Source: a virus. Taken from it: a stretch of 64,000 nt of DNA. Position 1 is the stretch's first letter; each line of letters begins with the position of its first letter. The stretch is from positions 32,001 through 96,000 of the IMG/VR virus record IMGVR_UViG_3300047548_001271, one strand, 5' to 3'. Positions 56,496 to 62,126 of this stretch are shown in pieces. Position numbers and translations under genes: made by a program. The notes below the pieces were generated by a model. That model was not told the origin of the DNA, ran no database searches, and saw nothing but the letters and a program-made list of their open reading frames with translations.

Positions 56496-56653
56496 TTCAT
56501 TTCCTCCAATTGTTTTTCTAAATCTTTACACATACTTTTAACGGAATCTCTAATTAAACTATTCATTGACTTTTTATCATCACTAGGATCTAAACTATTT
56601 AATAGATTTCTAGCTTTTTCAAGCCAAATTTTTGTTGTATCAATATTATCCAT
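56492..56653 (-). CDS. small hypothetical protein (53 aa, below ORF track cutoff)
   Basis: Manual translation MDNIDTTKIWLEKARNLL...; ATGA-coupled to ssb. Confidence 0.55.
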   Translation of the reverse strand: MDNIDTTKIWLEKARNLLNSLDPSDDKKSMNSLIRDSVKSMCKDLEKQLEEMK

Positions 56654-56969
56654 TTAATGGAGCCGTAAGTAGTTTTACTAACGAACCTCTAACAACTTGA
56701 GCATGTCCATTGCTAGCTTGTGACATTAATGATTTTGTCAGCTCTGATGTTAGACCGAGAGATTTTGCTGCTGACAGCGTCCCTTGTGCATTACAATTAT
56801 ACAGTTGTTTTCCACTCGACCTTGCTAGTGCAACTGCTGTAATTGGATTAACCTTCAACCCCTTATTCTTTCCGTTTTTCACAATACCAACAAGTCTTCC
56901 ATCATTCATCGTCCACTGAAATCTGTTCGAATAAAAACCAAACGAAGTCAAAAATTCACTCTGTGTCAT
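56646..56969 (-). CDS. hypothetical protein
   Basis: First gene after promoter; start placed at MTQSEF behind AAGGA. Confidence 0.65.
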   Translation of the reverse strand: MTQSEFLTSFGFYSNRFQWTMNDGRLVGIVKNGKNKGLKVNPITAVALARSSGKQLYNCNAQGTLSAAKSLGLTSELTKSLMSQASNGHAQVVRGSLVKLLTAPLNG

Positions 56970-57010
56970 TTTATTTCCTTTCAAAAAAAGTTTTGAACAC
57001 AATCTCTACT

Positions 57011-57038
57011 ATTATTGGTTTCTTCTGGAAAAAGTCAA
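57011..57038 (-). promoter_or_regulatory. sigma70-type promoter, leftward operon
   Basis: Minus strand TTGACT-N16-AATAAT. Confidence 0.6.
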
Positions 57039-57056
57039 TTTTTTTTCAAAATCGTT

Positions 57057-57084
57057 TTTACATTTTTCGGAAATAGGTTATGAT
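57057..57084 (+). promoter_or_regulatory. sigma70-type promoter, rightward
   Basis: TTTACA-N16-TATGAT; predicted start near 57091. Confidence 0.55.
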
Positions 57085-57090
57085 AATGTC

Positions 57091-57225
57091 GCCGACTGTT
57101 GCTCTTCGGCTTACATATCGCCTCACGGCACAGAGCATCATTCTCGTTGGGCGTAGGTGCAATATTAATTGACGCTAAAGAGCCTCCAACGGTATAGAAT
57201 CCTATATGGTTCCGAGCAGTCGGGT
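57091..57225 (+). ncRNA. putative structured non-coding RNA of unknown family
   Basis: GC-richer non-coding island with nested complementary segments CCGACTG/CAGTCGG, TTCGG/CCGAG, CATAT/ATATG, ATTCT/AGAAT, CGTTGG/CCAACG. Confidence 0.55.
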
Positions 57226-57319
57226 AATTTCTATATCACCTCAACGAAAATTTTTTTTCTTACTCTGAGCGTAATTCTATAATTAAGTTACACATTTTAC
57301 AACTAAAAGGGAAAAACAA

Positions 57320-58093
57320 GTGAAAAGAATAACGGTGATTACTTCTGTATTTAATGGTGATGAATTTATCGAAGGGTTTTTGGAGGATATCACTCAACAA
57401 ACAATATTTGATGATTGCCTTTTCCTTTTAGTTGACTGTAATAACCGTCCGGTCAGTAAAGAGGGAAGTTTAATATTGGAGTACACAAAAAAGTATAAGA
57501 ACATCAAATACGAGAAGAAGGCTGAACACTCTGGTATTGGAATATACGAAGCTTGGAACTATATGATTAAGAATTCAGAAACGGAATATATTACAAACGC
57601 AAACCTAGATGACAGATTGTTCTCAAGATCAATAGAAGAACATATAAATCTATTAGATAATAATAAAGAAATAGATGTTGCTTATTGTTACAATTTAATG
57701 ACAAACGAGCCAAATTATAATGAGAAAAAGCTATTAGAAAAGTATCATAATAGTGTTCATCAAGCATTAAAGAGTAAAAAGTTTTCAATATTTCCTTGTT
57801 ATGAATTCAGCTTAGAAAGTTTACTACAAACAAATAGTCCGCATAATCATCCAGTCTGGAGGCGGTCTTTGCATGAAAAAAATGGATACTTTTCTACTGA
57901 ATATAAGTCTGCTAGTGATTGGGAGTTTTGGCTTAGATGTGCGTTAAATGGAGCCAAAATGAAGCTGATTCCAGAAGTTTTAGGGATATACTACCATAAC
58001 CCAAAAGGTATGTCAACAGCTAGTGAAAATATGCAGCGGAATTTGGCTGAAGTTGCTCAAATATATTCAATTTATTCAAGGAAAATTAAATGA
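57320..58093 (+). CDS. GT2-family glycosyltransferase
   Basis: ITVITSVFN, GIYEAWN, NLDDR, SASDWEFWLR. Confidence 0.9.
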   Translation: MKRITVITSVFNGDEFIEGFLEDITQQTIFDDCLFLLVDCNNRPVSKEGSLILEYTKKYKNIKYEKKAEHSGIGIYEAWNYMIKNSETEYITNANLDDRLFSRSIEEHINLLDNNKEIDVAYCYNLMTNEPNYNEKKLLEKYHNSVHQALKSKKFSIFPCYEFSLESLLQTNSPHNHPVWRRSLHEKNGYFSTEYKSASDWEFWLRCALNGAKMKLIPEVLGIYYHNPKGMSTASENMQRNLAEVAQIYSIYSRKIK

Positions 58094-58794
58094 AAAAAGT
58101 GATATCATTCTCGCTTTGGGGGACTAATCCAAAGTATACTGAAGGGGCAATTAAAAATGCTTATTTAGCACAACATATTTATCCTGGATGGGAAACTTGG
58201 TTTTATGTTGCAAATGATGTTCCTCCAAATGTTATAAGTTCTATCAATAGATTACGAGGAAAAATAATTTACACAGGTCGCGTGACTCCACTAGCCATGC
58301 TTTGGCGATTCACCCCGATGTTTGATAAAACAGTAGATATTGTAATATCGCGAGATACAGATTCTCGTTTGGGATATCGAGAAAGAAAAATGGTTGAAGA
58401 ATTTGAAAATTCTGTTTATCCAGTTCATTCAATAAGAGATCATGCTTATCACAATGTTCCAATTCTTGGTGGAATGTGCGGAGTGAAACCAAAGATCTTA
58501 CCAGATTATCTTGATTTGGATTGGTTTGAAAGCTTCTTTAAAGACAAAGTTGATTTAAATTCCACAAATGTAGAATATGATTTTGACCAAAAATTTTTAA
58601 GAGAAATTATTTTATCATGTACTCTTCCGGATAAATTGAAATGTGCAGTTCATGATTATAGACGAAACACTTTTGCTTGCGCGTCTTTTGATTCAAGAAT
58701 GGATTTTTATTTTCATGTTCCACCAAGAGAGAATAATGAATATGTTGGGGCTCCATATTCTAGCACTGAAGAATTGGAGATACCGTTTGTATGA
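58090..58794 (+). CDS. GT-A-like glycosyltransferase (putative)
   Basis: ISFSLWG..PKY, MLWRF, SRDTDSR (DxD), RDH..H..PILGGM, DQKFL. Confidence 0.65.
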   Translation: MKKVISFSLWGTNPKYTEGAIKNAYLAQHIYPGWETWFYVANDVPPNVISSINRLRGKIIYTGRVTPLAMLWRFTPMFDKTVDIVISRDTDSRLGYRERKMVEEFENSVYPVHSIRDHAYHNVPILGGMCGVKPKILPDYLDLDWFESFFKDKVDLNSTNVEYDFDQKFLREIILSCTLPDKLKCAVHDYRRNTFACASFDSRMDFYFHVPPRENNEYVGAPYSSTEELEIPFV

Positions 58795-59744
58795 ATTTTT
58801 TTAATATAGATTTACATATTTCAGTAATAGAAGATATCAAGACTATATTTGCTGATCTCGGACATACTGTTGATTCGCTATGTCTATCGGATCACAACTG
58901 GGTGTTTAATAGACCTAGAGCCGTTCTAAAGCCACCATACGACAAGCTAAGGATGGTCCACTCAATGGACGAGTTTTTTAATCAGTCGTTTTGTGACGCC
59001 TTCTATGAGGACACAAAAGATATTCTAAGCGTATACGATGGGTTTATTGCTTGCTACCCACCATTGTTCTCACTTCTTTACCAGAAGTTCGAGAAGCCCA
59101 TCTACACAGTCGCCGCTACGAGATATGATCATCCACTAAAGGTGGATTCTAATGTAGCGTGGTTCAATGAAAAACTATTTGAAATGTGGAAATCTGGTCA
59201 GCTAATTCCCATAGCAAACAATAGATATGATGCTTACTATTGCAAGTCAAGAACAAATATTGACTTTAAGTATATTCCTAGCTTGTGCTCATACACAAAC
59301 GCATTATACACCGGCACTAAAGATCCAATCGTTGCCGGGAGAGAAAACATTCCTCCATACAAGCATATTACTAGTATTCCAGCTCATTCTTGGTACGAAC
59401 TATATTCACACAAGGCTATTATACACATTCCGTATAATGTGTCTTTAATGTCGATTTTTGAGCAATACACAGCCGGAGTCCCACTTCTTTTTCCATATTT
59501 TAATGCTAGGGAGCGTTTTAATACATTTCTTAATGAGGCCGGCGGTCAAGAGGCTATTGACATGAGATATTTATCTGATTTTTATGATGAAGAATGGATG
59601 CCGCATTTAAAATATTTTGATTCTATTGAAGACCTTCACGCTAAAATTAATGAAATGGATTTTTTTTCTATTAGCTCTAACATGAAGGAATTCAATAAAA
59701 TAAGAAAACAAAGAATATATGATCTGTGGGAAGAAGTTATTTAA
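58791..59744 (+). CDS. glycosyltransferase-like protein
   Basis: DLHISVIED; IHIPYNVSLMSIFEQYTAGVPL resembles GT-B donor-binding motif. Confidence 0.6.
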   Translation: MNFFNIDLHISVIEDIKTIFADLGHTVDSLCLSDHNWVFNRPRAVLKPPYDKLRMVHSMDEFFNQSFCDAFYEDTKDILSVYDGFIACYPPLFSLLYQKFEKPIYTVAATRYDHPLKVDSNVAWFNEKLFEMWKSGQLIPIANNRYDAYYCKSRTNIDFKYIPSLCSYTNALYTGTKDPIVAGRENIPPYKHITSIPAHSWYELYSHKAIIHIPYNVSLMSIFEQYTAGVPLLFPYFNARERFNTFLNEAGGQEAIDMRYLSDFYDEEWMPHLKYFDSIEDLHAKINEMDFFSISSNMKEFNKIRKQRIYDLWEEVI

Positions 59745-62054: not shown

Positions 62055-62126
62055 TAACTCTACTAGGATTCGAACCTAGACTGTCAGATTCAAAATCTGA
62101 AGTGCTGACCATTACACCATAGAGCT
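62055..62126 (-). tRNA. trnQ: tRNA-Gln(UUG)
   Basis: Acceptor AGCTCTA/TAGAGTT, anticodon arm TCAGA-TTTTGAA-TCTGA, T arm CTAGG-TTCGAAT-CCTAG; CCA not encoded. Confidence 0.92.

Follow-up and report, generated by a model that had tools for sequence, protein, structure and literature searches.

A conserved RNA element with two pseudoknots at the head of sugar-modification genes in an uncultured freshwater phage lineage

A conserved RNA element of about 180 nt is found at positions 57091-57271 (plus strand, 3' limit near 57271) of the window, i.e., the whole 64,000-nt stretch of DNA that was analysed. It represents a genuine and well-supported new RNA family in a single lineage of freshwater phages, with two pseudoknots and a nearly invariant core. 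Its host DNA belongs to an uncultured freshwater phage, and the same DNA is present in freshwater metagenomes. The RNA is housed in a 317-nt gap between a minus-strand gene of 118 aa and a plus-strand glycosyltransferase (GT2) gene. The features of the region are as follows.

56646-57002, minus strand: divergent gene for a small basic protein of about 100-130 aa, which accompanies the RNA in every locus
57057-57084, plus strand: predicted sigma70-type promoter, TTTACA (57057-62), 16-nt spacer, TATGAT (57079-84)
57091-57110, plus strand: P1, 5'-terminal hairpin, GCCGA (57091-95) with TCGGC (57106-10)
57097-57140, plus strand: PK1, first pseudoknot, P1 loop TGTTGCTCT (57097-105) with AGAGCATCA (57132-40)
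57111-57129, plus strand: invariant single-stranded UACA within TTACAT (57111-16), then the putative hairpin P2, GCC (57120-22) with GGC (57127-29)
57145-57246, plus strand: P3L, long-range closing helix of the 3' domain, CGTTGGG (57145-51) with CTCAACG (57240-46)
57152-57190, plus strand: conserved core strand, CGTAGG-Y-G-N-AATA, variable insert, NNNT-AA-AGA-R-CCTCCAAC
57173-57181, plus strand: 5' strand proposed for PK2, CGCT-AA-AGA, within the core strand, to be paired with 57264-71
57191-57237, plus strand: P4, GGTATAGAA (57191-99) with TTCTATATC (57229-37), enclosing a three-way junction
57201-02 with 57208-09, plus strand: P4a in the junction, CC with GG, supported by pair counts
57211-15 with 57220-24, plus strand: P5 in the junction, TCCGA with TCGGG, loop GCAG (57216-19)
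57247-57263, plus strand: low-complexity linker, AAAA, T8 (57251-58), CTTAC
57264-57271, plus strand: 3' strand proposed for PK2, TCT-G-AGCG, beyond P3L
57320-59744, plus strand: downstream operon, GT2 glycosyltransferase gene (57320-58093) and two overlapping genes of no assigned function

Occurrence and non-coding character of the element

The original prediction described a GC-richer non-coding island at this place, and this description agrees with the data. The GC content of the island is 43-48%, as compared with 25-33% in the flanks. Among 18 members, none has an open frame through the element, all six frames being interrupted, and alignments of relatives show indels of 1, 2, and 4 nt inside conserved blocks. 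The idea of a small protein gene was rejected on these grounds, and ARAGORN detects neither a tRNA nor a tmRNA at 56800-57500. The run of eight T that had been noted downstream is present (57251-58), whereas the 3' end, previously placed at 57260, has to be shifted, the element reaching about 57271.

The first relatives, L001 and L002, were found among the loci of GT2-protein relatives, where nhmmer and blastn recognised the non-coding stretch. Pattern scans derived from the two best-conserved blocks, GGCGTAGG...AAAGANCCTCC, gave related stretches in viral and metagenome contigs. The resulting set comprises 20 distinct homologues, one per contig, from uncultured phage contigs and from freshwater or other environmental metagenome contigs. 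Covariance models retrieve exactly one copy of the RNA per contig, and this holds for five contigs of 84-131 kb as well. Compared as DNA, the element shows 71-82% identity over 50-150 nt, a conservation that equals or exceeds that of the neighbouring genes. Loci L003-L013, which carry more distant GT2 homologues, lack the RNA, and a viral scan using the upstream small protein as query found nothing. As for cultured phages, no blastn match to 56900-57400 is obtained among 50,697 phage records, and the nearest cultured phages, as judged from their RNR or GT1 protein, are distant. A single pattern match in 185,579 species genomes was discarded as a chance occurrence in GC-rich coding DNA, to which the covariance model does not match.

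That the RNA is structured, unannotated and of no recognised family, as originally proposed, is supported by its strong covariation and by the Rfam scans. At the gathering score, Rfam gives no match on the whole window apart from a tRNA; at E <= 10, it gives none on 56900-57400 (501 nt) or on nine relatives, i.e., ten members in total. The novelty of the family is therefore not removed, and literature searches found no description of the motif. The tRNA gene matched by Rfam lies at 62055-62126 on the minus strand (RF00005, 67.9 bits).

Conserved helices and pseudoknots

The fold was evaluated on a 17-sequence alignment, A5. In this alignment, which was fitted to a model and is consequently biased towards the proposed structure, 91.9% of the cells form standard pairs versus 71.2% in shuffles, 30 of the 38 pairs are changed on both sides, and none of 500 shuffles reaches any of these measures; controls with slid partners give 35-47% of paired cells. 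Two checks were made on A4, an unfitted MAFFT alignment. The pairs were checked by hand, and RNAalifold independently returned P1, P3L, P4, and P5.

In the 5' part of the element, P1 is paired in 95.3% of the cells of A5, with changes on both sides for four of its five pairs. PK1, which contains a conserved U-U mismatch at 57099/57138, is paired in 79.8% of the cells, and eight of its ten pairs are changed on both sides. Compensated variants are observed, such as CGTATTTT/AAAATACG in L020 and CCATTTT/AAAATGG in L018. The TGCTCT/AGAGCA pairing that had been noticed in the window is part of PK1; it covaries and is thereby borne out. RNA geometry probably imposes a constraint here, as P1 and a full PK1 of 9-10 bp fill the whole hairpin loop with almost no linker, so that both can hardly be complete together. 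It may be that a few terminal pairs stay open; alternatively, P1 and PK1 may alternate. Downstream of P1, the UACA segment (T27 A28 C29 A30 in the alignment) is invariant. P2, which would follow it, is a weak proposal: a small variable hairpin read by eye, whose position shifts between subgroups.

The 3' domain is closed by P3L, for which 92.8% of the cells are paired and six of nine pairs are changed on both sides in A5. Three members added later strengthen this helix, and in L043 it is made of a wholly different sequence, CUAAUUAAC/GUUAGUUAG. P4 (98.5% paired; seven of eight pairs changed on both sides) and P5 (98.8%; five of five) are both confirmed in a second count and by RNAalifold. The invariance of the core strand is partly a product of the search patterns that were used. 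Within this strand, columns 87 and 111 of A5 (57158/57182) hold C-A ten times, U-G five times, and C-C once. Since C-A and U-G are isosteric wobble geometries, the two positions change together in a way that hints at an inner helix or at a tertiary pair. A possible inner helix would associate GUAGG with CCUCC, including 57158/57182; RNAalifold prefers another register, and the bases are otherwise invariant.

The second pseudoknot, PK2, would be formed by the NNNU-AA-AGA part of the core strand and a UCU-G-ANNN strand located beyond P3L. Every member has exactly one downstream TCT[GC]A site. The four variable bases of this site complement the core 4-mer of the same member, with CGCU/AGCG in the window, CAGU/ACUG in L020, AGGU/ACCU in L043, CACU/AGUU in L027, and GAGU/ACCU in L039. 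In a permutation test, 34 of 40 pairs form, as compared with a permuted mean of 29.4, and this score is reached or exceeded in 164 of 20,000 permutations. In addition, 88.8% of the cells are paired and three pairs are changed on both sides. These counts argue with moderate, not strong, weight for PK2. The TCTGAGC sequence was also considered as a repeated promoter motif and rejected, 5 sites being found in the window against 6 expected.

The overall fold supported by the homologues is not the one that had been proposed from the window, namely an end-to-end rod. The rod was read because the minimum-energy fold of the window sequence (-43.5 kcal/mol) is a rod of this kind. It has a much lower energy than the conserved nested structure (-27.4 kcal/mol), but relatives do not share it. 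Jointly, the helices of the rod are paired in 61.6% of the cells versus 59.8% in shuffles. Its closing helix (57092-98 with 57217-23) is paired in 67.8% of the cells and only one of its seven pairs is changed on both sides; the nested TTCGG/CCGAG, CATAT/ATATG, ATTCT/AGAAT, and GCGT/ACGC helices were counted with it and share the shuffle-like result. Most members can form CGTTGG/CCAACG, since the invariant CCUCCAAC is similar to the P3L 3' strand, but this helix does not covary, and L042 and L043 cannot form it. Taken alone, the window RNA folds only slightly better than shuffles (z-score -2.05). Single-sequence folding thus misled both the original prediction and the minimum-energy calculation.

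The rod had suggested a 6S-like decoy, whose central bubble would imitate an open promoter and hold the sigma70 holoenzyme. The length of the element, its own promoter, the phage setting, and the rod-like minimum-energy fold of the window would all suit such a role. Because the rod helices do no better than shuffles and CGTTGG/CCAACG is not conserved, the decoy is nonetheless unsupported. Moreover, the 5' and 3' ends are not paired with each other in the conserved structure, and neither the window nor any of nine relatives is matched by a 6S model of Rfam, whether at the gathering score or at E <= 10. We regard a 6S-like function as extremely improbable.

Substitutions in near-identical DNA variants from two other freshwater runs fit the conserved structure. 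All three that fall in the fold (57121, 57126, and 57160) are structure-neutral: in run X5, 57121 C>T leaves P2 with a G-U pair, 57126 is a loop base, and 57160 is a variable base.

Transcription, genomic context and possible functions

The claim that the RNA has its own promoter is supported. Beyond the TTTACA-N16-TATGAT site of the window, a TATAAT-like -10 hexamer ends 5-6 nt upstream of P1 in about 18 of the 20 homologues, amid otherwise unconserved sequence. Transcription would probably start at about 57090-92, at the first bases of P1. Transcription of the RNA and the position of its end are deduced from sequence. Contigs from two freshwater metatranscriptome libraries (95-99% alike) cover 56662-56986 only, within a 1-kb stretch; their low depth makes them uninformative on expression of the RNA, and DNA carry-over may account for the coverage of the upstream gene. 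On the minus strand, a promoter-like site antisense to the RNA (TTGTAA-17-TAGAAT, 57302-57274) is a consensus match only.

The sequence that follows P3L varies. Directly 3' of this helix, 13 of 17 members have at least six U within 8 nt. In the window, T8 comes only after AAAA, and the length of the T-run differs in freshwater runs X3 and X5. In L018 (9362-9375) and L039 (933-947), about 15 A replace the U-run, and L042 and L043 have A7, then a run of U. The linker is thus low-complexity throughout, while its composition flips between lineages. In L016 and L028, a strong canonical terminator, separate from P3L, comes right after the fold; in L016, it precedes the 3' strand of PK2. Many members are U-rich again after the PK2 strand. 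In L039, no terminator is found between the RNA and the next start codon.

The synteny is constant at every homologous locus, with the gene of about 100 aa, the SSB gene, and the GT1 gene on the minus strand. Wherever enough downstream sequence is available, the RNA precedes by 61-317 nt a co-oriented first gene, which in the relatives encodes a GT2, a manA-like cupin isomerase, a methyltransferase, or a GT1. The distance between the RNA and the start codon is 60-75 nt in the window, L039, L034, and L033. No promoter-like site was reported between the two in the window, and none was seen by eye in L039, L034, and L033, so that the promoter of the RNA is the sole visible one for the operon. A perfect TATAAT does occur in the window at 57278-57283, separated by 7 nt from the PK2 strand and by 36 nt from the downstream GT2 start codon. 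It has a weak -35 and its position is not conserved in relatives; it is a possible second promoter.

Because the RNA is always on the same strand and directly upstream of sugar-modification genes, a leader is the best class of explanation. We estimate at about one half the probability that the element is a cis-acting 5' leader governing read-through into the sugar-modification operon. According to this proposal, host RNA polymerase would start at the 57057-84 promoter and make the RNA, about 180 nt long, as the 5' leader of the operon. The 5' half would fold as the terminal hairpin P1, with its loop paired to a downstream strand (PK1). The 3' half, closed by P3L, would enclose the core strand and the three-way junction P4/P4a/P5, and the core strand would also pair beyond P3L to give the second pseudoknot. 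The folded leader would then affect, in cis, either the transcript or the polymerase that makes it, and set how much transcription passes the U-rich or terminator-like stretch after P3L into the operon. It could do so as an attenuator or riboswitch-like sensor, P3L and the U-tract being the built-in stop, or as a put/EAR-like element making the polymerase read through.

Several observations favor the cis-acting leader. In addition to the fixed position and strand, the distance to the start codon is short in the window, L039, L034, and L033, where the RNA is followed by no second promoter-like site. L039 has no terminator at all before the gene, and stop-like signals follow the fold elsewhere (a U-tract in 13 of 17 members and, in L016 and L028, a strong terminator). 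The fixed distance of the -10 box and the neutrality of the three DNA-variant substitutions to the fold are also consistent with it. Other observations weigh against it. In L018/L039 and L042/L043, P3L is followed by A-rich and not by U-rich sequence, and in the window AAAA precedes T8. TATAAT at 57278-83 could belong to a second promoter. Finally, all members come from one syntenic phage lineage, and their constant context may reflect shared ancestry rather than function.

The original prediction had also mentioned a switchable leader for the glycosyltransferase operon. Position and strand bear out the leader, but the switch lacks conserved alternative helices. When each strand of P3L is blocked in turn, RNAalifold finds no conserved alternative partner for either of them, and no alternative conserved helix competes with P3L. 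Only 4 of 17 lineages (L014, L027, L043, and L016) have a strong local hairpin that would compete with PK2, so no universal expression platform is visible. A universal local terminator hairpin before TCTGAGC was looked for and not found across lineages. The possibility that CCUCC is an anti-Shine-Dalgarno strand was dropped since, by eye, it does not match the downstream ribosome-binding sites, which are of the AAGGA type.

The same ends can be read in another way, as those of a stand-alone small RNA of about 165-200 nt acting in trans. Its 3' end would be set by the U-tract that follows P3L or by the U-rich stretch beyond PK2, and it would bind a phage or host protein, for example the adjacent protein of about 100 aa, or mRNAs via the invariant CCUCC or UACA. 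Its own promoter, the U-tracts after P3L and often after the PK2 strand, the strong canonical terminators right after the fold in L016 and L028, and a rigid-looking fold with no evident switch would agree with this; the L016 terminator, by preceding the PK2 3' strand, fits a discrete small RNA. In the L039 lineage, however, there is no terminator before the start codon, and 60-75 nt are left in several members, so that a small RNA would need to be cut out of the mRNA. Moreover, no target or partner has been identified. The conserved small gene without recognised fold always adjoins the RNA, which makes its product a possible partner or regulator. This protein is 26-44% identical between relatives and the window, with a conserved ...NPVTAVA...SNRGHAQIVRGK... 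region. It has no Pfam, PHROG, or NCBIfam family and no Atlas lead. Its AlphaFold2 model (mean pLDDT 86.8) has no convincing PDB fold match (best Z 3.2), and it shows no recognisable RNA-binding fold, which weakens the case for a protein-binding small RNA. On balance, the trans-acting RNA is the main rival to the cis-acting leader, but we consider it clearly the less probable of the two.

The rigid fold without detected switch and the location of P1 at the predicted 5' end, or no more than a few bases from it, would also be expected of a plain protective structure, in which a terminal pseudoknotted fold guards the mRNA from 5'-end-dependent decay, or aids folding, without sensing anything. Against this, the nearly invariant 40-nt core and the two pseudoknots suggest a specific partner, and the bacterial 5' stabilisers known to us are simple hairpins. 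This explanation appears unlikely.

Still less credible is an origin-associated or primer transcript, like ColE1 RNA II or the T4 ori transcripts, with the A/T-rich stretch behind it as unwinding element. The RNA does lie at a divergence point beside the SSB gene, a low-complexity A/T run follows it, and a local minimum of the cumulative GC skew is found near 57200-57300. The skew turns where the gene strand changes, however, and so adds no independent evidence. Primer RNAs are not known to need two covarying pseudoknots with a nearly invariant core, and no repeats or iterons were noted.

A further reading can tentatively be proposed, in which the element would belong to a new class of regulatory RNA as its sensing or catalytic part (metabolite riboswitch, glmS-like ribozyme, or put-like RNA) and time the expression of the glycosylation genes. 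If this were true, a metabolite of the sugar pathway or of the infection state would be sensed, or the host polymerase reprogrammed, in a freshwater phage lineage. The genes headed by the RNA probably glycosylate phage DNA, the virion, or the host surface, and such glycosylation bears on evasion of host defence and on host range.

Comparison with known systems

By analogy, the closest parallels appear to be the manA and wcaG phage motifs and leaders of the put/EAR type. The manA (RF01745) and wcaG (RF01761) motifs are orphan cis-regulatory RNAs found before mannose or exopolysaccharide genes in cyanophages and marine metagenomes (Weinberg et al., 2010; PMC2864571). Like the present element, they are structured orphan RNAs of uncultured or aquatic phages and likely 5' UTRs of sugar genes (PMC2864571), manA having in addition a possible pseudoknot. 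The genomic location is comparable, as the RNA described here is found upstream of GT2, manA-like cupin, methyltransferase, or GT1 genes. The manA-like cupin is the first downstream gene in L016 and L026, and GT2 elsewhere. In L016 (5496-5846) and L026 (4891-5244), this gene encodes a cupin of 116-117 aa resembling the C-terminal part of mannose-6-phosphate isomerase (PF01050), a gene class that is also found behind the cyanophage manA RNA motif. On the other hand, the RF01745 and RF01761 models do not match at E <= 10 in ten members, and the hosts differ, freshwater contigs of about 33% GC here versus T4-like cyanophages. Moreover, the present RNA is larger, with two pseudoknots and a promoter directly at its 5' end.

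HK022 putRNA has the layout promoter, folded RNA, stop signals, operon (PMC9378689). The element would resemble put and EAR/epsC in being a nascent RNA that folds and acts in cis, with a promoter on one side and terminator-like signals on the other, in front of a phage or polysaccharide operon. As regards these signals, strong terminators are present in L016 and L028, U-tracts in most members, and neither a terminator nor a U-tract in L039. The put RNA of HK022, by comparison, is small (about 70 nt, two hairpins) and is not known to form a pseudoknot. Neither sequences nor models of this kind match the present RNA, Rfam epsC included, and binding of the present RNA to polymerase is putative.

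In common with riboswitches and attenuators, the element places at the head of an operon a conserved, aptamer-like core that has pseudoknots and invariant bases in its junction, and a U-tract follows its closing helix in most members. Covarying helices and invariant junction bases upstream of genes, as in riboswitch-type aptamers, are indeed found here. The differences are that the element shows no conserved terminator/antiterminator alternative, has no known ligand, and lacks the U-tract in some lineages. The glmS ribozyme (RF00234) has about 170 nt and two pseudoknots, and lies in the 5' UTR of a gene for sugar metabolism. Its model does not match in ten members, no core sequence is shared, and ribozyme activity of the present RNA is hypothetical. 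As to 6S RNA, the likeness is limited to a similar length, an own promoter, and a possible link with RNA polymerase, whereas the rod with its central bubble is not conserved and none of the Rfam 6S models gives a match.

If the RNA senses a ligand or acts on polymerase, it would constitute a new regulatory RNA class and provide a handle on gene timing in uncultured freshwater phages. Even as a mere leader structure, it merits an Rfam covariance model. To our knowledge, complex phage RNAs with comparable covariation are uncommon and few orphan motifs with two pseudoknots have been described.
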